From Octopus vulgaris (taxonomy: Eukaryota): a stretch of 64,000 nt of DNA. A model generated the notes under the pieces. The model saw only the letters and a list, made by a program, of their open reading frames with translations. It was not told where the DNA came from and did no database searches. The translations under genes were made by a program, and so were the position numbers. How positions within the stretch are numbered: position 1 is the stretch's first letter; the number at the start of each line of letters is the position of its first letter. Below are positions 1,995 through 61,387 of the stretch, one piece after another. The stretch is taken from NCBI GenBank assembly GCA_951406725.2, contig OX597820.1, positions 102,734,001 to 102,798,000 of the forward strand. Direction: 5' to 3'.

Positions 1995-4900
1995 TACACA
2001 TATGAATATATATGCATGTATATGTATGCAGATATATGTGTGCACGTGTATGTATACATGTGTGCGTGTGCATATGTATGTATGCTTTTATATATATAAG
2101 TATACTTATACCTGTATATATATTTATTAACACTGTCATCCTCATATTCATCATGTAATGTCACTTGGATATGGAAACTTGGTAGAGTTCATCCTTCTTC
2201 AAACACCCCCTTACTGACCTTGGTAATTAGGGGGTGGCATGTCAGGCGTTAAGTATAATGCTTCTATCCAGATCATCCTATAGGCCACAATGTAGAAATT
2301 TAATATGGGGTAAAAGGTGAGTCGTATGATCCAATAACTCTGCGTCAAAATAACCGATGCAGTACTTGAACAAAAAGTCATCGAAGAGAAGTTCCGTACA
2401 ACCCTAGTTTGTAGTTTCTCTAAAAGCAAGTCAAATTTTGCGGGTAAATACTTTATTTAGCCTCTGTTCAAGAACGCTATGTGCCAGATTGTGTTTGATA
2501 CTGTAGTGATATTTAAAGAAGACTGGATTATACAATGTTTCCCTCTTACTTGTCGTATTCTCAGTTCATTTATGGCGTTCCATCGGTTTGGACAGACATC
2601 ATGTATCATGCTTTTAATGAAGGAGAAAATGTGTTAAGTACAAGATTTGGAGTATAATTATATTTATTCCATTACTACCTTGTATAGCAACATGCGGTTT
2701 AACAACTGTCAGGTTACAAGTACTAATATACGATGAAAATACTCGCAAATTTTGTCCAAGATGACGCTGATAGCTACTATTACATTAGTTAACATAGGAA
2801 AAATGATTTTACGCAAATATATGAAAAGCAGTTGCAGAATAAATGCAGCTATTCGCAAATGTAAAAAATCACATGCATAGCAATGACAAAGGTAAACAAC
2901 AGTCGCATTACCTCTAGTCACCTATTTACAAACATGAAGTTTAACAACAATCTGATCCTGCCCGCTGATACCATGTCTATGAAAGAAGAAATATTTTCTA
3001 CGTTATTTCGGACCCAAATTCAAACTGCCAATTAAAAAAATATTTTTGTATCTATAGATTATGGCTTAAACATATTTGAATATAGTGTATATACATGGGC
3101 ACCTGGAATGTGATCTGACACTAAAAATTTAAGCTTAAATTTGATACCGCTATCTTAGGCTATGTGTGAACTAATGTATGAAGTCAAGAAAGTTTCGAAA
3201 TTTGCAGTTTGTAATTGTGTAAAACACCATCGCTAAAAAATTTATTGATTCGTTTTTAGTACTAGAAAATCTGGTCTCCTTTCGCTTCTGAAACAGTTAA
3301 TGAATAAAAAAAAAGCAGAATACAGAACCTATCAAAGTTAGCATAGGAGCAAGTGACTCGGCAAAAGCGAGTGACATATTGAGTTTATTGTAAACCGCAT
3401 TTCGAGAAATTTCTTTTTATATCAGGTCATATGTACAGCAATGATGGCGCTGTATTTAACAAAAATTCATTAAAAAAGATGGTTTTCGAAAACTCGTAGA
3501 CAAACTTTTTGAAGTATTTGGATTTACAATAAAAATTAATGTCCACTAATATGCAATTAATTTACTAATGTCACACTCAACTTAAATAATTTCATATGTT
3601 GCTCTTATAAAAATCTAAGAGAAAAATCACAATTCATACTTAAATGGTCTGGCTACCAAATAGTATCATTACTGATTCAAACATTATATATAACGTACGT
3701 CGAATTGCATTTAATTGTGCGTAGAAAACCATCTATGTCACCATATAGTAATTTATTTACATACACTTGGAATAAATTGTGAATATATCTTGATAGTCAA
3801 TCTGGAAATACAGTATTTAAACCTCAATAAATGTTCGTGTCGTGTTTAATTATGATATTCATGGGTACGAAGATAATTGTCAGAAAAGAAAGGTGTATAT
3901 AGTTATATAGACCATTTTATTGCATACCTATTTCATTATTTGTGAAAACTGTTTTAACGGGAATAGTGTCTTTAAACATTTTCTCTGAGTATACGTATGT
4001 TTAGATATAATATATACACATATGTTTGTACTACTCTGTAGAAATGTATTTTTGATTTTTGTTGCATAACTATTAATCATTTACGAATCTATTTTGATGC
4101 AAAAGCTGTTATGAAATATTTTATTGAATTCTAAGTATATGTAATTCATCAGTTACATTATAGTTAGATATGTACATTAGTAGTCGTGCAGAAATGGCTA
4201 TGTAAGTATACCTATATAACGTTTTAATCATTCGTGAATATATTTTGCTAAATAGATATTTTGAAATTTTTTATGTTTTGATAAAAAAGCTATTTTGTAA
4301 TATTTTATTTTATGTCTTTCTGAATATATGAAGTATATGGTTGTTTCCTTATAAAATATGCAGCTACATTCGTAATTATATGTTGCCAACATAAACATGT
4401 ATGTGTTACGACTGCGTATCCATTAGATATTCAGAAATCTATTTTGACACAAATTCTCACTTGAAATATGTTATATCATTTAATTTTACGTATATACGTA
4501 TATTTAGAATTTACATAGATTCATGTGTATGTTCAGACAAAAACGTGTAAAATACATCTGTCGTATTTTTCTCTATATATGCTCTATATGTTCCTGTATA
4601 TATATGTACAAATGTTTTTATGTATGTATTGATACATATATATATATATATATATATATGAATAGTTGCATGTAGATGCTTACATACATACATACATACA
4701 CACATATACGTATCCACGCATCTGTGATAGTATATGTGTGTGACTGTGTGTCAGTGTAAAATCTAATACGGGTGGGTCGTCAGGAAGTGGTAAGAAGTCG
4801 TACTAAAAGATAAGTGAATGAATGATGAAGAAAAGAAATAATAATGGCGTATGAGTTTACGTGAATATATCCTTATACATATAAATATATTCTGTACATG

Positions 4901-5033
4901 TGCGTGTACATGTACATCTATATGTATATATTTACGTATGTACATATACACAAAGGGCAAAATAGAGGGAGGAAGAGAGAGAGAGAAATGTGCTGAGACA
5001 GACAGACGGACAGAGACAAATAGACAGACAGAC

Positions 5034-5144
<111 letters not shown>

Positions 5145-5872
5145 AGGCGCAGGAGTGGCCCTGAGGTAAGTAGCTTGCTAACACACATGCGCAGTTAGTC
5201 AGTTGCTTCCTGTTCAGCCAGAGTGGACGCGAGTCAACCAGCTCCGTCCAATTAAAGAAAAAAGACCAAAAACGGAAAGTTGTCGAGGTAAGTGATTTTG
5301 TTTATTGTGAGTTGGGCATAATTTATTGCGTGCCAATTATTACTTCAGTAAGTTGTGTCCAACTCTGAGACAATTTCGCCTGCTCTCGGCGGCTGCCATT
5401 TTTGTGTTCATTGAAAAAAAAAAGAAAATACAGTGGAGGGGCGTATCCTCGGAATTCAATACAGTTACTGTTAAAATTACGTTTGGCGGTAGCCAGTGCT
5501 GTGTTTGGGTTTGTTGAATTTATTCCCTTGTCAGATTACTTCGCAAGAAAATTATAAAAATAAGCCACTATTGGATTACCTTTCGGACCCATTTTTGTGG
5601 AGGTTGTGTTGCTGTTGCGGCGTTCCAGGTTCAACCCATGCCGGGAGTCCCGCAAGGCCAGAATATTTTTGCTGTGTTATTTTCTGTTTATTAACTTTCT
5701 TTTGAACTTCATTTTGTTTTTTTTCTTTATTGCGACTTTCCGTTGATTTCTTCCCTTCTGTTGTGCTTTCTCCTTTTTGTTTTTTTCAAAAATCTATCAA
5801 ATTTTATTTGGACTTTTGAACTTTTTTCTTCTTGCTTTTTGAGTTTAATTTGAATATATTTAAAAAAAAAAC

Positions 5873-7102
5873 ATGGCAATGAAAAATAACAAAATTTTAG
5901 AATGGGAAATCATACCACCTAAAAAGTGGTTAAAAGACCGTGAAGATAGGACGGTGGTGTTGAGAACCTACTCCAAGGCACTCGACACCATCGCCCTATT
6001 CGAAAAGACGGCAATTGAAAAGTTGGAAGAGTATTTGCCAACAATTAAATTCATTTCTAGGGGTGTCAAATATGCAACGGTGTGGTTGCTATTTGACACC
6101 CCTGAAGAGGCTTGCAAATTTGCTAGCAAACCCCTGGAGGGTAAGGAAATCTTATTCCTGCCCACGTACAAAAAAAGAAATTGATGAAAGCTTGGATTTG
6201 CGGACTGCCACCCGACATAGAACCCGAGTGGATAGAGGAGACTATCCGCCGGGGTCTGGGTGGCAGCGAAACTAAGCTCCTTAATGTAAAAGTTCTTCCT
6301 GCGGCTGCTTGGGTTGGGTCAAAAGCAATTTTGACCCTGTGGACCCAATCAGCCAATCTGGTTCTTCTAGATTTTTTGAAAATGGCCGGGTGCAGGTACC
6401 CGGTGATGCTTGAGGGTCGCCCCCCTATGTGTCATCGGTGCTTGGAGCCCGGCCACATAAAGAAGAACTGTCCCCGGGAACAAAATAGGATCCCGGAACA
6501 GTTAAGTAAAACCCCTCTAGAAGAGGGAATGATAACGACCGAGAAAGCAGAGGACTCCTCAAACAGAGGCCGAAAGAGGAAGGTGAGCAACAATGGGTGC
6601 TCACCAAAGGATAATAGGGATGAGGAGAGGAAGCGAATCTTCCAGCCACGGAGGAGACGCACCCTCCCTCAGTTGAAAAGGGGAAAAAAAAGAAAAAGAG
6701 GAAGAAAAAAGGGTCATTGCCGGCTGTCAGTGACATAGCACCGGAATGTCCCGGAACTACGTCGGTTGGGGTTGTGCTACCACAAGAGAAGGAATACCGT
6801 TGGCGGGAACTGTGCCGCCAACGAAAGAACTATTGGTCCTCTTCTATAGAGGAGGTGAAATTGAAAAGGTGATGGAAGAGCACCAAAAGGGAGAACTTTT
6901 AGCCTTCACACAGGACCCCGAATGGCCTCCGCAGGTAGCTGTGGAGGCCGTGGCGTTCGACGTGACGCTTGGGCTAAAGGAGCTCAATGAAGATTATAAC
7001 TTGGTCCCGGGCGACGCAAACTCGGAACTTGATTACGTTCTGAGGGAGGCGTGGTTGATGGTGGAGGGCGCGGGCACAAGCTATTTCGAGGACGATATGT
7101 AG
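5873..7102 (+). CDS. LINE ORF1/gag-like nucleic-acid-binding protein (RRM-like N-terminus, CCHC zinc knuckle), broken by two frameshifts at A-runs
   Basis: ORFs 5873-6184, 6181-6738 and 6746-7102 abut, with frame changes near A-homopolymers (~6170-6177, ~6684-6691). CHRCLEPGHIKKNC fits CX2CX4HX4C. The paralogue at 24555-24755 reads through the first break. Confidence 0.7.
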
Positions 7103-7123
7103 TTATTGAACTGTTATTATTAG

Positions 7124-7243
7124 TAATGGACTGCTAAGTCCAAAAATTGAAAAATTGTAAGAGGTTTAATACCTCGTTTTGTAATAATGGACTGCTAATT
7201 CCAAAAATTGAAAAATTGTAAGAGGTTTAATACCTCGTTTTGT
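7124..7243 (+). repeat. 61-bp-period tandem duplication in the 3' UTR of the ORF1-only element
   Basis: 7124-7182 matches 7185-7243 with one mismatch; each unit has a GAGGT-ttaat-ACCTC hairpin. Confidence 0.9.
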
Positions 7244-8194
7244 GTTTATCTTTAAAAAGAACAATGTTTTAGAGAAGCGAAAGTCGGCGGGCGCTTTTTG
7301 TCTTCTCCCATCCTTATCATCTTTCTTTCATTATCATTCACTTCATTAATGTCCTCGTCCAGCCCGCAAAGCTAACTTAATCTGTGTACTGCCTTTGTGG
7401 CAAATGTTTTGAAATAAAGTAGCTTGCTAACCAACCACATGGTTCCAGGTTCAGTCCCACTGCGTGGCAACTTGGGCAGGTGTCTTCTGCTATAGCCCCG
7501 GGCCGACCAATGCCTTGTGAGGGGATTTGGTAGACAGAAACTGAAAGAAGCCTGTCGTATATATGTATATATATGTATATGTATGTGTTCGTGTGTCTGA
7601 GTTTGTATCCCTAGCATTGCTTGACAACCGATGCTGGCGTGTTTACGTCCCCGTCACTTAGCGGTTCGGCAAAAGAGACCGATAGAATAAGTACTGGGCT
7701 TACAAAGAATAAGTCCCGGGGTCGATTTGCTCGACTAAAGGCGGTGCTCCAGCATGGCCGCAGTCAAATGACTGAAATATGTAAAAAGAGTAAAAAGAGT
7801 AAAAAGAGAGATAGATATAAATCGCGCGAATAAGATAAAAAAGCAAACGGTGCAAACAATCAAATAAAGCAAGACGTAATACGAGTGACTAAAATGATCA
7901 TTTAGGCATTATTAGAGATTACAGCGTGTTGGCAATATTGATAGGAAAAAGGCATATGATCAACAAAAGCAATAAAAATAAATCTAAAGGAAGGAATATT
8001 ATTATATATATTTTTTCTCTTTAATCAGTAAGTGATATTTTCCATTTGTTTTCATCTAAGAAATCAAAGGAAATGACTACTATTCCCTTCAAACTTTGCT
8101 CTTATCACCTGCACATCAATGTCTTGAAATTAACCCATTTTGTATAATATTTCGGACAGATTCAGCACTGAGTTACTGAAGCAGAAATAAAGCC

Positions 8195-24309: not shown

Positions 24310-25838
24310 CTAGCATTATGACCCGTCGTTGCCGGGTCACAGTGCTAGTGCGTGTATATATGTGTATATATATGTGTACATATTACATGTACATCTTTAT
24401 ATATATATATACATCTACACATAAAATACAAAGTTATATCTTGATATCGCTAGTGATAACAATACTCAATATATATAACAGACTGGAATTGTAGGCCCGT
24501 CTCTTGCAATTTCGATGAATTGTATCTTGTCCTCCCTCTTGCGTAGAAGTGTTGCTACAGTCCAGCCTTTACTTCTGGGGGGACATTTTTAATTTTTATC
24601 CGGGACGTTCTACGTCCCAGATAAAAAGGTAAAAATAAAATATTTCCACTTTGCAAGGTTCGAGTCGAGTACTCCCTTGCTAGCTCCGTTGACTCGAACA
24701 TTGCTTCTATTGTGGCGAATTTACCGCCTCTGGTTAGATACTCGATATCTTTCATAGTCGCACCAAGACATTTTTCGATGGTGCTTTCCTCCAGGTGTTG
24801 AAATCGATTTTTTCTCTACATTGTATACTTTATAGACAATAGTTTTTTCTTTAATTTAATTTTTTATTTCGTTTGGTGGTGTTATCCTAGATTCACCGTC
24901 TTTGTCGGTGATCAATCCGAAATAGGTTTGTATTTCTTCCATTTTAATTTTAATGAGTTCGCGACCGCCAACGGCTGCAGCGAAATTCATTTTTGGACTT
25001 TCTTCTATCGAAGGCATTCTAACAAAAATGCTTCCATATAAACGGTGAAAATAGCTTCTACCAAAGGGGGAAGTTTACGGTTTACAATTATTTAACAAAT
25101 GCAACACAACAACGTTTCCCTTACGAGGAACCAACAAACGTGATAACAATAGTTAAACAGTAATAATAATAACAACAAACCTTACGGTGAATCAAAAAGC
25201 AGTAGGCAGTTGAAGCTATAGTCCTTTATGTATAAGAAATAAAACAACAGCAGTACTCAGTAGAAGCGGCTGTTCGAGAAAACAGACATTACATACAATC
25301 AAACCTCATATAGATATTTAATGCTAGCTAATTAGCAGATAATCTAATATAAAAGACGTGGTAAAGAGTATGCGCACAGCTCCATCTGGACTATTCCATT
25401 TCTGCACACTAATTTTATTATTAATTTATTCCCATTCATGTGAAACCACTTATTCAAGTTCAAGTCATTGATGCAATGTTATGCCAATTGCTATTTTTAC
25501 TTTTAATTGTTATGTTACGATTTAATTTAGTTTGATTTTAATTATTACTTACTACATATAATTCAATTTTTATTATTATCTCTAATTTTTATTGTTAAAG
25601 TGAAAGTATCTGACATAAAATAGAGAAATGTTTTTGTTTCACTTTTAACACGTAATACTGAAATTGTGGAGAAGATATGATATTGCTGTGGGCTCGCCCT
25701 AGGCAAAAAGTTAAATGACACTCCTCAGACCCTAAGTAAGGCATGTGTAAAATTTGAATGAAATTGGTTGTATAGTTCTCAATTTTTAGGGAAACACAGA
25801 CAGACAGACACACACACATTCTCAGTTTTATATATAGA
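24310..25838 (-). mobile_element. Non-autonomous Helitron-like element containing a LINE ORF1 5' fragment
   Basis: The minus strand starts TCtatatataaaactgagaatgtgtgt and ends with a GC-rich hairpin (gacccg/cgggtc) followed by CTAG at 24310. The base after CTAG is not the canonical T. Confidence 0.55.
24480..25017 (-). pseudogene. LINE ORF1 N-terminal fragment, paralogous to the ORF at 5873
   Basis: IEYLTRGGKFATIEAMFESTELAREY...ILFLPFYLGRRTSRIKIKNVPPEV aligns with IKFISRGVKYATVWLLFDTPEEACKF...ILFLPTYKKR/LMKAWICGLPPDI. Confidence 0.75.
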
Positions 25839-40355: not shown

Positions 40356-42584
40356 AATCAATTTATATAGCACAATACACTACAAAAAACTTTGCATCAG
40401 TGATATAAAATGCGAACTGTTTCAGTCGACCACAGTCGACCACTGTTTTTCTCGTTATATCTTGCATGACGAAACAAAGTCTCTCATTTATGAACTACTC
40501 TTCAACATAAGTATAAACTTATGCTGAAATTATCCAGTAATGACTATATTAAAGCCATTTATGAATACTAAAAGAAAATAATTTCATTGTCTGATCATAG
40601 AATTCTTCAAAGCAATACTAACAAAAGGAAAAAAAATTGCTACTATTGTTCAAATATGTAATCGTGTCATTTGAATAGGTAATGCATGTATAACTGCATT
40701 GTGCATAATTTCATTGTTACTGAAAAACGTAGGACAATTCCTTTCATAAATTTAACAAAAGATCATTCAAAAGCCAACTAGACCAGTATATAAACTCTAT
40801 TGATCGCCGCCACAAAGAAATCAGTACATTGCACTCGGAGAACATGTCTCAAAAGTAAATCAGGAGCGTTTAACCAACATTGCATCATTAACACAGTTTA
40901 GACTGAGAAATTTTACGTAGTAAATCTAATCAAAGAAATAATGAATAGAAAGACAGAGCTAACATCGACTTTCGGGAAGCATGAGAAAATATGCGAAAAT
41001 ATGGGAAACAGCCTCAGTAAGGCTGATGTCAAACGTTACAAAAAACGCTGGCATATCTTTTGTGCTAACAACTAAACAGAAGCCACAGAAGTTAACTATG
41101 ATCAAATTCATTGATGCTAGGGTTTGATTATGGTGTATGTACGTGTGTGTGTGTGTGCGTGTATTTGCGTGTGCGTATGTGTGTGTATGTGTGAGTGTGT
41201 GTGTGTAAAAACTACTCGCGTAGAAACTCATTCTGCCACTTGCAATGTTGAATTTACACAGCCAAAAAGCTAAACTTTGAGGAAAACCAAAGCACGAATT
41301 TAGTGAAGAACAAACTTTTATGCCTACATACATACATACAAATCATAATGATTTAGCCAGTGGCCTGCATACAAACAAGCGCTGTCCACTCTACCACTTG
41401 ATAGATTCAATTTAGAAGGTCTTGATTGTTTGGGACCATCACTAGACACATTCACTCAACCATATGAGCCTTAAGTTTTTACCCGTAAAATATTGTTACA
41501 TGTCATTCATGCACGAATGTAGCGGGTAACTTACAAACATTTCTTAGCTTAATTATGAATTCATCTGTCACAGTTTAAATTTAGAGTGTTATTTTCTTTT
41601 TTCGTTGGTGGGTTGGTGGGGACTGTCACTAGATACATTCACTCAAGTGTGTCATCCTTAACTTACGGCGAAAATATATTGCCACATGAAATCAACGCAC
41701 AGACATAGCGGAGAACTTATAAAAGTTTCGAAGCCTAACCTTCCGCCAATTAAATTGTGTCCTAAACAGATATTAATTTGGGTCATGTTCTCTCATTAGA
41801 AATAAGAGAACTTTCGAACTCCAGTTCAGTACAGCCCATATCTATCAATCTCACTTAAATTTTGAAAATCAGAAAAATATGAGAAAAAATAAATCGTCTA
41901 AAAGATTCCAAGTGCATTTTCAACTTCTTTTTTCTGTATTCATACCCCTGTTGAATAAAATTACTTCGTTCTATATGTATATGTATTTACGTGTGAGTGA
42001 GTATGTATGTACACACGCACATATATATATATTATATGCATGTGTTTCAGTATCAATATAACTGTGTGTATTTAGACATAGATGTATTATTGTAAGAGTT
42101 TCAAATATAAGACGATATAAAAATCTTTAAAATGTTAGCTGAGAAAGAAGTGAATACTAAAGTAGAGTTATATGTGTATTCTATATGACATTTCCTTCAA
42201 AGTTTCTTCAAAACTGACTGTGTAAATTATAGAGAATTAACGTACAGTGTGGGGGGGGGGGGCAAATAAATATTTGTTCTTTATTTAATTTCTAATGAAC
42301 ATAAATGGGATATACGAATACTATATTTGCATACAGATGCATAAACTAAGAATATGCAAAAGAAACTAATAAATTATAGTAACTAAGGAACTTATATACA
42401 ATCATAAATATTTAAAAATTGGTTGTGCAATATTTTTTATGTGAAGTCGTGTGTTGAAACAGATATTGTTATATTTCGGAATGGTCATATTGCCAGTTTA
42501 GCCAATAAAAACACACGCACTATATATTTGGTGTTATTTTGCTTCAGTGTTATTTATTTTTTACATTAATCTTAATCTTATTTC

Positions 42585-42628
42585 GACCAGAGTTCTTTCG
42601 TCACACTCCTGAGACCGCATCAGTGGTC
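42585..42628 (-). ncRNA. Type I hammerhead-like fold with A9C core
   Basis: GACCA-CTGATGC-G-GTCTC-AGGAGT-GTGAC-GAAAG-AA-CTC-TGGTC: 5-bp stem I, stem II, 2-bp stem III, CUC triplet. Confidence 0.6.
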
Positions 42629-42972
42629 CTTTGTTTTCTTCTTTCTTATTTGTGTCTCTCCTTACTAACCGTCAGCCATTTTGTATTTCTATTGTATGTC
42701 TTCATTTGCGCATGCTTATATCCCTATGTGCGTCTATGTTTATTTAGTGTGTATGTGGGGGGATGCCTGTAATATTTGTATCTTCTGTTTATATATGTTC
42801 ATGTAATTTGTATTTTGTTTTTTGTTTTTGTTGTTTTTGTTTATTCTTATTTTGTTCATGTGTTTACATCCACTTATTATTATCATTACATATGCATGTA
42901 TGTATGTATGTATAACAACAATACTAGTAATAATAATAATAAATCGAATCGAAATATATATATATATATATA

Positions 42973-43232: not shown

Positions 43233-43402
43233 ATATATACGACAGGCTTCTTTCAGTTTCCGTCTACCAAATCCACTCACAAGGCATTGGTCGACCCGGG
43301 GCTATAGCAGAAGACACTTGTCCAAGATGCCACGCAGTGGGACTGAACCCAGAACCGTGTGGCTGGTAAGCAAGCTACTTACTACACAGCCACTCCTGCG
43401 CC
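42973..43402 (-). mobile_element. SINE family A, full-length young copy
   Basis: Minus strand begins ggcgcaggagtggctgtgtagtaag (A box) then ggttcagtccc (B box), with an internal (TA)(TG) tract and a (gtaaaaga)n tail. Inserted in (TA)n. Confidence 0.9.
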
Positions 43403-43929
43403 TATATAGTTATTTATTTCAATTAGTTTATTTATCTGTGTATTTATTATGTTTTCAGGATCGTCTATCGTCATATGTTGTGGTGTGTGTTAGTGCTCCA
43501 TTCTAGTTTTCTATTCAGGCTAGGTTTATTTTCTATTATGTGTGTAGCTTCTGTAATTTATGATTTTCTATGCCACAAAATACGGTTAAAATAATTTTTT
43601 TTACTAGAACTTTCTCGTTTGTTACAATAATCTTATCATTTGTCATTTTTAAGTGTCAAAGCGCTAGCTTCATCATTCTGCATTGAGACAACATAAATAT
43701 GAACAAAATAAGAATAAACAAAAACAACAAAAACAAAAAACAAAATACAAATTACATGAACATATATAAACAGAAGATACAAATATTACAGGCATCCCCC
43801 CACATAAACACTAAATAAACATAGACGCACATAGGGATATAAGCATGCGCAAATGAAGACATACAATAGAAATACAAAATGGCTGACGGTTAGTAAGGAG
43901 AGACACAAATAAGAAAGAAGAAAACAAAG

Positions 43930-43973
43930 GACCACTGATGCGGTCTCAGGAGTGTGACGAAAGAACTCTGGCC
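43930..43973 (+). ncRNA. Second copy of the A9C hammerhead-like fold
   Basis: Same as 42585-42628 except the stem I 3' strand is TGGCC (one mismatch). Confidence 0.55.
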
Positions 43974-44290
43974 GAAATAAGATTAAGATTAATGTAAAAA
44001 ATAAATAACACTGAAGCAAAATAACACCAAATATATAGTGCGTGTGTTTTTATTGGCTAAACTGGCAATATGACCATTCCGAAATATAACAACATAAATA
44101 TTTAGGTGTGAAAAAAGTATTTGCACAGAATAAATTTATGATTTTCTATGCCACAAAATACGGTTAAAATAATTTTTTTTTCCTAGAACTTTCTCGTTTG
44201 TTACAATAATCTTATCATTTGTCATTTCTAAGTGTCAAAGCGCTAGCTTCTTCATTCTGCACTGAGACAACATAAAGTAGTATCGTAATA

Positions 44291-47224: not shown

Positions 47225-48240
47225 AGCGGCAGTTGAATTTTACTGAAGAACGAAAGACGAAGACTGATGTATAAACAACAAACAGTGGTAGTTTAACGCT
47301 CGGGAAGGTAAGAAAATCTTTTAAGTTTCGAGCCTGGGCTCTTCAACTGAAAGGAACACGAGGAAATAAACAAAGAAAGAATTTAAAAAAATTTTATCTA
47401 GCGGTCAATCATGGTGGCTGGCTGGACAAAGGTAGTTAGACAGGAGAGCAAGGTATGAGTTTGGGGTCACGATGTAGGGTAGGGCTGGGTTTGGATGGAG
47501 GGGGTATCGATGAAAGGAGAAGGTGGGTAGGAGTGAAGGGAGGAAGCAGGTGTCAGGTGAAAAGAGGATAGGAGGGAAGTCAGATGAAGAGGAGAGGGGA
47601 GTTGAGCCCATGTGGAGCAAAAAAGAGAAGATCAATCCGTGTTCACGGCGAAGGTGACAGTCCAGATGGCTCCTAAGCAAAGACAATCCGAACACGATAA
47701 ATGATGGGTAGAGTGAAAATGGAGCGAGACCGAGGTGTCGTTGCCGAATCTAATGTCTCAAAGGTGCTCCGCGAACCGGTCAACCAAGTGGCGTCCCCTT
47801 CCGTTTGACCGATGTACAGAGAAGGACAGAAAGAGTAGGAGATGCAGTAAATGATGTTGCTAGAAGTGCAGGTAAAAGAGTCGGTGATATGATAGGGGCG
47901 ATGATGGTTGTGTGAGGATGGTGGTGATAGAGAGGTAGGAGCAAGTTCGGCAGCATGGGTGGAAGCAGGGGAACGAGCCAGGCTGGGAGGTGGATTTAGG
48001 GAAAAAACTGTGGACCGCGAGATCACGTAGGTTGTGGGCTCGTTTGAAGTAGGGGATGAGTAGGTTGGGGAAGATGTGCGAAGTGGAGTCGCTGGAAGGC
48101 ACGGAGAATGGTGTGTTGGAGAGGTGGTAGGTGAGGGGAAAAGAGAGACGGGTAATGGTGGGGCGGGTGCGAGGAGAGAGAGAGAGAGCAAAGCACGGTC
48201 CACGGAAGTGCTCTGGCAAGGATGGTGTGGATGGGCCGAG
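47225..48240 (-). mobile_element. Penelope-like element 3' part: GIY-YIG remnant plus pLTR with degenerate hammerhead (47318-47353)
   Basis: GSFPCFHPCCRTC and HITDSFTCTSSNIIYCISYSFCPSLYIGQT, then RFAEHL after a frameshift. Downstream: ctttCAGTTGAagagcccaggctcGAAActtaaaag. Confidence 0.85.
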
Positions 48241-48639
48241 CCACATATATATATATATATATATATATGTGTGTTTGTATACATAAAGATATGTATGTGT
48301 GTGCGTGTGTATTTGTATATGTGTATGTGTGTGTATGTGTGTGGTGGGAGCACTGCCAATATATGGAATATTTCTTTAATGTACATAATACTTATGACCG
48401 TCCTTGCCAAAAGGATGTACCAATTTCTCGACCAAATCAGCATCCTTCCCTTTAAACAAAAGGGTGCAAAAGAAACTCATACGTTTGTAAAGATCAGCTA
48501 TTAATAAACCGTATGGTACTCGAAAATTACTCATCCAAAAAACGAAAACGAAGCACAGCATGGATTGACTATCGTTAGGCATTTGACGTTGTGCCACATA
48601 GCTGTATCTTAAAGGCACAAAATATATGTATGGTCTCTC

Positions 48640-60153: not shown

Positions 60154-61387
60154 CACAGGAGTGTGACAAAATAATGGAAACACCTTAAAATGTCAAAATA
60201 ATTTATCTTAATATGGATTAGGACCGCCTTTGGCAGTAATTACAGCGTGAATTCTACGAGGTATGGACTCGTACAAAGTTTGAATTGTTTCCAAAGGAAC
60301 ATTTGCCCATTCTTCAGCTAAAACAGTCTCCAGATCTTGTAGTGATGATGGTGGAGGATATAGACTCTTTATTTGATTTTCTAAAATGCACCACAAATGT
60401 TCAATAATATTGAGATTTGGGGACTGTGGTGGTCGGATAAGGTGTTCAACTTCACTAGAATGTTCTTCGTGCCATTCATTGACAAATTTAGCTGAGTGAA
60501 TTGGTACATTATCATCCTGAAAGATTGCGTTTCCCTCCGGAAACAGTTCCACAATCATAGGATGAATTTGATCAGATAAAATGCTTAAATAGTCTTGACT
60601 AGATATCTGCCATGAAGGGAAGCCATTGGGTCGGCGGCTTTCCAGGATATAGTTCCCACCAGATCATCACAGATCCTCCTCCACGTTTAACAGCTGGAAG
60701 AAGGCAGTCTGGGTCAAATGCTTTTCTTGGCTGTCTCCACACGTATACTCAGCCAGTGGTCGGAAATAAGGTAAAGGACGACTCTTCCACTGCTCTAGGG
60801 ACCAATTCTGCGGGTTTTTATTCCACTCTAAAAGCTTTGAAACGTTTGTTTTTGAAAGTAGTGGTTTTCTGATTGCAGCCCTCCCGTGAAATCCGGTTTT
60901 GTGCAGCTTCTGGGTGATCAGTTTTTATGGAAACTGGGTTTCGAGGTGCTCATTAACCACTGCAGTAATTTTCCGAGCTGTAATTTTGTGACCCTTTCTA
61001 ACAATTCGCGTAAGAGTTCGACGGTCCCTGTCTGAAAGTTTTGGTTTTCTTCCGGATTTTTGTTTCGACGAGGAAGATTTTTCTTCAAAGGCTGTCATCA
61101 CTTTCGAGACAGAACTTATTGATAGACCAAACATTTCGGCTGCTTTCGTTACGCTAGCACTTACCATACGAGCACCAATAATTTCACCTCTTTGGAAGTC
61201 CGATATATCTGTCATTTTAGGTGAATTTTAATTAGCTTTTTCTGATGATATCTGAAAAGAAACAGCAATTTTAGCAAAACGTATTAAGCAACACTAATAA
61301 TAAATCAACAAGCTTTTGACGGTTTTATAGATATTTCAAAATTATGATGCTATGATGCTAGGTATTTCCATTATTTTGTCCAACCCT

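Follow-up and report, generated by a model that had tools for sequence, protein, structure and literature searches.

The 64,000-nt stretch of Octopus vulgaris DNA analyzed here (the window) carries a 2.2-kb insertion at positions 5183–7416 of the plus strand. We consider it probable that the insertion represents a full-length but decayed member of a non-autonomous LINE family that carries ORF1 only. A separate, autonomous LINE likely mobilizes the family in trans; this partner probably belongs to the L1/Tx1 group. All parts of this non-LTR retroelement and of its immediate flanks are given below in plus-strand coordinates of the window.

The boundaries of the insertion were defined by a target-site duplication of 15 bp (AAGTAGCTTGCTAAC), with the left copy at 5168–5182 and the right copy at 7417–7431. 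The two copies match at 15/15 positions, confirming the perfect duplication around a 2.2-kb element that had been described from an initial reading of the sequence (the original prediction). The chance expectation of such a duplication is ~1e-9 per position pair. When the insert was excised in silico, the flanks joined as a continuous SINE that aligned without gaps to an intact copy starting at 43402 on the minus strand. The interrupted 5′ head of this SINE (5146–5182), which matches the head of the intact copy (43402–43366) at 86%, contains an A-box-like motif at 5156–5166. The remainder of the SINE (7417–7822) shows 88% identity over 406 bases to positions 43380–42960 of the intact copy (minus strand) and contains a B-box at 7448–7458; thus, the insertion separates the two motifs. 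A (GATA)n microsatellite precedes the SINE head.

Insertion between the A and B boxes of a tRNA-derived SINE had been proposed, and the motif positions agree with it, whereas the tRNA origin was not recovered by either tool: ARAGORN predicted 0 genes and Rfam reported no tRNA match in the intact SINE head. An Rfam scan of positions 4900–8000 gave nothing near the gathering score. The A and B motifs lie at a tRNA-like spacing and octopus SINEs are stated to be tRNA-derived in the accessible text of PMC9223172, and it is from this spacing and this statement, not from tool matches, that the tRNA origin of the interrupted SINE is taken.

The element consists of a T-rich 5′UTR of 690 nt (5183–5872), an ORF1-like gene (5873–7102), and a 3′UTR of 314 nt (7103–7416). 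The UTRs are set apart by base composition, with a GC content of 37% and 33%, respectively, versus 49% in the ORF, in line with their description as defined UTRs. The 5′UTR is covered across the family and likely contains an internal pol II promoter. A 62-bp tandem duplication (7121–7182 and 7182–7243, 97%) is located inside the 3′UTR. The element had been described as ending at AATAAA; this hexamer is present at 7413–7418, but it straddles the junction between element and target, and its final two A are therefore duplicated target bases. The 3′ end of the element lacks a poly(A) tail, which is unusual for an L1-type insertion. Folding of the last 176 bases was no better than that of shuffled sequences (z 0.08). 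A 21-base pattern from the 3′ end had 0 viral matches, and its single hit, to a MAG of a rumen bacterium (L001), was taken as chance.

The ORF1-like gene spans ~410 codons, from an ATG at 5873 to a TAG at 7102, and encodes, in this order, RRM1, RRM2, a CCHC knuckle, a basic low-complexity linker, and a C-terminal part. A frame of this length with two homopolymer frameshifts had been predicted. The length was correct, but the frame is interrupted by three single-base losses, at ~6170, ~6631, and ~6781, and only the first of these sits in a long homopolymer. Two homopolymer slips would not carry the reading on to 7102, because the last frame is closed by a stop at 6731; placing an X at each of the three breaks yielded a frame of 410 residues with one stop. 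Other copies of the element, represented by contigs from all four sequencing runs that were mapped, have an additional base at each of the three breaks. They also include in-frame insertions of 3 and 6 bases at 6020 and 6830. As predicted, the element encodes no reverse transcriptase, and it has no endonuclease either: translation in six frames gave no ORF longer than 197 codons, and the four ORF pieces that were scanned had no match to a reverse transcriptase or endonuclease family.

Two further sources of sequence difference were considered and found no support. CpG decay was not supported as the source of the differences of this copy (3/16 versus a background of 21%, no excess), and the comparison therefore does not separate decay from assembly error for the three breaks. 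The excess of A>G over T>C in the contig comparisons is about as large as the G and C content would predict and was not taken as editing.

The type of protein was assessed using its relatives. The closest of these was O. sinensis XP_029652367 (P0001, 281 residues), which has 73–75% identity across 211 residues and continues in frame past the position of the first break (~6170). A profile built from P0001 and two window pieces yielded 49 protein matches. We looked up 20 of them, and the 13 that were named all belonged to Octopus or Argonauta. One of the 13, P0002, is chimeric, joining a 47-residue piece to an integrase.

The CCHC zinc knuckle (C-x2-C-x4-H-x4-C, ~6430–6471) proposed from the sequence is present, and Pfam matched it to zf-CCHC (PF00098) with an E-value of 0.003 and a score of 17.9 bits, short of the curated threshold (20.8). 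The same family matched 15 of 28 members, at E-values up to 5. AlphaFold was run on P0001, a relative and not the window's own protein, with a 28-row alignment. The model (mean pLDDT 78) contains two alpha-beta domains before the knuckle. Foldseek returned two-RRM proteins as its best matches to the model (E 1.5e-5). In VIA-align, each domain matched RRMs (La RRM: Z 9.2, rmsd 2.6, 83 aligned), with Z-scores only just over the stated background (typical best Z 7–8). The RRM-like domains comprise residues of about 15–102 and 103–185 of P0001; mapped onto the window, two tandem RRM-fold domains are predicted at approximately 5915–6425. At the sequence level, no Pfam RRM match was obtained in any of the 28 members, Transposase_22 did not match among the families listed for them, and a search of the alignment against sequences of solved structures mainly matched zinc knuckles.

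Less could be said about the rest of the protein. For the last 106 residues, the model was unusable (pLDDT 39), no relative was detected (0 of 598 candidates, which is weak evidence), and there was no significant match to the fetched proteins. Longer relatives of the middle part were likewise absent among 95 candidates (0 of 95, also weak evidence). Residues 1–210 of P0001 showed a feature-level likeness (score 0.90) to ZCCHC3-type RNA-binding domains (PF23057, PF23058) with zf-CCHC. This likeness, which comes with no alignment or E-value, is a lead only, and the structural match fell under the bar for naming. An LTR element or retroviral gag was rejected as a candidate on the basis of the lack of terminal repeats and an RRM fold, not a capsid. 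ORF1 proteins with RRM and CCHC domains are known outside L1/Tx1 too. Taken at the level of the model, the protein is predicted to be a type I LINE ORF1p with two RRMs and a CCHC knuckle. According to PMC5203782, in its accessible part, type I ORF1p is defined by at least one RRM followed by CCHC and is linked to Tx1 in non-mammalian animals.

We evaluated the family status of the element in sequencing runs. The element stretch was present in 20 of the 24 listed runs, covering 10 studies and five organism labels (A–E). Contigs were mapped for four of the 20 positive runs, with organism labels A, B, C, and A. The numbers of contigs placed in these four runs were 7,562, 6,809, 3,841, and 866, some of which are SINE contigs at the right end; the contig details reported here come from the 32 of 19,201 pieces and 24 of 1,463 loose ends that were listed. 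The mapped stretch included 25–29 bases of SINE on either side, and SINE contigs swamped its last bin and the tables of flanking sequence. All 30 bins were covered in each of the four runs. In run X2, single contigs reached depths of 2,900–3,900 in the 5′UTR, ORF, and 3′UTR alike, and in run X5 the corresponding depths were 360–550. Long diverged contigs had depths of 48–64 in X2 (8/8 listed) and 3.5–11 in X5 (7/8 listed). Contig depth is not itself a copy number, but if the diverged contigs are single-copy, these values would correspond to a young subfamily of ~45–80 near-identical copies with both UTRs. Diverged variants down to 82% likeness among the mapped contigs suggest that older copies exist beside it.

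These data bear on the idea that the window contains a single-copy accident (a LINE deleted internally, or a host RRM-CCHC gene copied as a processed pseudogene) or an artefact of assembly. Such an origin would be compatible with the sole copy of the element in the window, the three frame breaks, and a best run that contained 0.57 of the sampled words. It is very improbable given end-to-end high-depth cover in 4/4 runs, three organism labels, and the diverged variants, together with a second, older relative of the element at 24.5–25.0 kb in the window itself. The element belongs to a repeat family common to several species and is not a one-off deletion. A single-copy deletion of a LINE, which the original prediction had named as the result that would overturn it, was thus not what the repeat cover of 30/30 bins under three organism labels indicated, and the predicted multi-copy ORF1-only family in a mollusc was upheld by high-depth repeats in 4/4 runs and by named ORF1 relatives that were all octopod.

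The contigs also informed on the ends of other copies. No contig in the mapped runs spanned the whole element. One contig from run X15 (record 16) covered positions 6946–7240, across the stop codon and into the 3′UTR, with 4 differing letters, and none of the 24 listed of 1,463 loose ends left the element just behind the stop codon. Depth at 7397 was 3.5–10 times the depth at 5343 in 4/4 runs. As the mid-ORF was equally deep in the three DNA-like runs, this 3′ excess does not demonstrate 5′ truncation. Run X15 was only guessed to be RNA, and no RNA run containing the element was found among the listed runs.

Loose ends at 7112 (four contigs in X2 and two in X5) revealed sequences in which the 3′UTR is common from about the stop codon and the upstream part differs. 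These sequences hint at a lead to the autonomous partner. They can also be read in favor of a different relationship, in which an autonomous LINE shares the same 5′UTR and ORF1, and the 2.2-kb form is its passively amplified deletion derivative with a dispensable ORF1. It is accepted that ORF1-only elements originate by such a deletion (PMC5786205, accessible text), and the relatives exposed at 7112 share the 3′UTR with different upstream sequences, as such a relationship might produce. The differences seen in the ORF when this copy is compared with others are also near neutral: among the 40 of 212 differences listed, 21 fell in the ORF, of which seven were silent and 14 changing. This near-neutral pattern is, in our reading, mostly decay of this one dead copy, and the frame is preserved in the high-depth contigs, whose ORF indels, other than those at the three breaks, were all in-frame length changes among the 12 of 27 indels listed. 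No listed loose end passes from ORF1 into another frame. A passively amplified derivative is accordingly improbable, although a rarer ORF2-bearing form may exist alongside the ORF1-only family. Two 30-base loose-end strings from older copies contained 12 codons that differ from the window, eight of them silent versus ~28% expected for random changes, in a comparison read by eye on a small sample. Like the in-frame insertions and the uninterrupted frame of P0001 at the first break, this pattern is in line with coding constraint on ORF1.

Under the preferred reading of a trans-mobilized ORF1-only family, the following course of events is proposed. The family would likely have arisen by loss of ORF2 from a LINE, with ORF1 retained under selection. 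An intact master copy would be transcribed from its own 5′UTR, and its ORF1p would coat its own RNA and likely co-assemble with proteins of the partner. For HeT-A, HAL1, and Ag-Sponge, ORF1p is considered likely to multimerize with the partner's protein (PMC5786205, accessible text). The partner's ORF2p would nick the target at T/AA, priming would occur at the short A end, over two bases of microhomology, and the partner-driven insertion would leave the 15-bp duplication.

Possible donors of ORF2p exist in the host, as Table 1 of PMC13282606 lists, for O. vulgaris, 421 insertions from 13 L1-Tx1 families with recent activity. Dividing the figures given there, the mean insertion of these families is 5.4 kb. 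The supplement of the same paper gives 80 families in all. Metagenome scans with P0001 (0 of 595 stretches) and P0053 (0 of 201) recovered neither an autonomous partner nor an ORF1-type locus with ORF2, and consequently both the clade and the mobilization in trans are what we infer for the family.

The location of the element raises the question of target choice, and the insertion into the SINE head may reflect chance or a target preference set by the partner. In the second case, the ORF1-only family would be the same, but a Tx1-type partner would cut the tRNA-like head of the SINE at T/AA after the A box, and most copies would be found there. We regard this as possible, if on the doubtful side. 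The insertion site lies within a 153-nt head that is present three times in the window, and the entire SINE makes up 2.6% of the window. One diverged contig (X1 record 1, 13 differing letters and 13 gaps) aligns from 5177, inside the duplication by six letters, without any clipping, and is ambiguous. In addition, the first 7 bases of the element are similar to the SINE sequence downstream of the right duplication, sharing a 5-mer (~0.7% chance in a post hoc count). Many Tx1 families show target preferences, among them preferences for U2 genes or for other transposons (PMC4494074, accessible text).

Against such a preference, the case comes from one insertion and one ambiguous contig, and no junction contig was found among those listed. 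SINEs constitute 11.6% of the O. vulgaris genome (PMC13282606), and T/AA sites are common, with 3,623 in the window. With abundant SINEs and common T/AA sites, some copies of a large family are expected to land in SINE heads by chance. Moreover, copies inside a SINE are the easiest to spot. In PMC4494074, as far as its accessible text goes, the threshold for target specificity is >20% of copies flanked by one repeat, and a SINE head is not named as a Tx1 target. The most specific form of the proposal appears unlikely: a parasite of a Tx1-type LINE, carrying ORF1 only, whose insertions would go specifically to the interval separating the A and B boxes in the most abundant octopus SINE head and would silence the pol III promoter of every SINE hit.

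We compared the element with known systems. Like HAL1 of mammals, it is a non-autonomous non-LTR element that encodes only ORF1p. HAL1 requires ORF2p in trans (PMC5753468, accessible text), and its ORF1 was kept coding over long periods (PMC3627910, accessible text). The designation of the octopus element as HAL1-like therefore holds for the way of working but not for family membership. HAL1 is derived from mammalian L1 and has a Transposase_22-type ORF1p (coiled coil, one RRM, and CTD), whereas the octopus protein is predicted to be a type I ORF1p with two RRMs and CCHC; unlike L1-derived HAL1, the element lacks poly(A), and neither an L1 parent nor any other parent LINE was found. The two RRMs with CCHC and the octopod hosts point to an origin independent of HAL1. 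HeT-A, which is telomeric, and Ag-Sponge belong to clades and hosts that differ from those of the octopus element. They are derived from Jockey and CR1, respectively, and are grouped with HAL1 as non-autonomous LINEs with ORF1 present in the accessible text of PMC5786205; their likeness to the octopus element is by description only.

Tx1-clade LINEs (Tx1L, Keno, Kibi, Koshi, and Tx1-Mar) have the link to type I ORF1p in common with the octopus element (PMC5203782, accessible text). These LINEs are autonomous and defined by RT phylogeny, whereas the octopus element has no RT. Tx1-clade LINEs insert into other repeats, and the SINEU passenger inherits the target of its partner, according to the accessible text of PMC4494074. 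No published report of an ORF1-only element in cephalopods was found: HAL1 and Tx1 did not occur in the main text of PMC9115989, nor ORF1 in PMC8967140, nor HAL1 or ORF1 in the supplement of PMC13282606. Repbase, Dfam, or the Zenodo library of PMC13282606 may contain the family.

The significance of the element depends in part on its target. If the SINE head is truly targeted, a SINE would join the targets of Tx1-type endonucleases, and the family would provide a case of one mobile element disabling another; with specific insertion, LINE, half-LINE, and targeted SINE would form the three tiers of one system, conserved among octopus species. Should the SINE head prove to be no true target, the family still extends the octopus repeat catalogue, solidly if modestly, and may already be present without a name in repeat libraries. 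Several octopus gene models annotated as 'uncharacterized', LOC115225585 among them, likely represent copies of elements of this kind, and this makes the family relevant to annotation. ORF1-only LINE derivatives have been described from three clades, represented by HAL1, HeT-A, and Ag-Sponge (PMC5786205, accessible text). A fourth independent case, with two RRMs and CCHC in octopods, would mark ORF1 in cis with a borrowed ORF2 as a recurring strategy, and tens of young copies with intact frames would offer a system for asking why ORF1p is needed in cis.

The first seven bases of the element (5183-5189) resemble bases 7432-7441 of the SINE, which follow the right 15-bp target-site duplication. 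From this sequence likeness, either the element's 5' boundary may be uncertain within some 7 bases, or its 5' terminus may itself be target-derived. Within the 5'UTR, splice-donor-like and acceptor-like motifs (5285-5355 and 5820-5845) were picked out by eye; none of the 15 joints listed, out of 74 in the contig alignment, matched these splice-like motifs.

A related ORF1 family has also left a relic, older and broken, on the minus strand of the window (24534-25020; 30% identity to the element, E = 4e-9). The proteins P0015 and P0021 are about 48-53% identical to this relic. A T-rich leader was found upstream of it, and another repeat cuts it off near 24480. Also in the window are a 151-codon minus-strand frame (60208-60663), resembling a Tc1/mariner transposase fragment, and minus-strand frames at 47673-48476 with a GIY-YIG-like stretch, possibly a Penelope relic. 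The intact SINE copy (43402-42960, minus strand) sits inside an inverted repeat of 397 bases, with arms at 42463-42859 and 43699-44095 that are 99% identical and 839 bases apart.

Elsewhere, the profile search yielded the O. sinensis gene model XP_029639579 (P0002). In this model, a sequence closely matching residues 1-47 of the element's ORF1 is fused to an integrase fragment, and the model is likely a chimeric annotation spanning nested elements. Four related ORF1 proteins (P0003 and P0050-P0052) lie on contigs that differ little in length, at 1,849-1,930 bases, and leave no room for an ORF2; this is a hint of further ORF1-only families, although contigs of this kind are short anyway.

Contigs from the sequencing runs X2 and X5, aligned at 7095-7112, indicate that the element's 3'UTR is common to a related sequence family from about the stop codon onward, and that upstream of this point the family carries a different, AT-rich sequence. 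This family is a candidate for the tail of the partner LINE, the proposed autonomous source of ORF2 in trans, or for a sister family.
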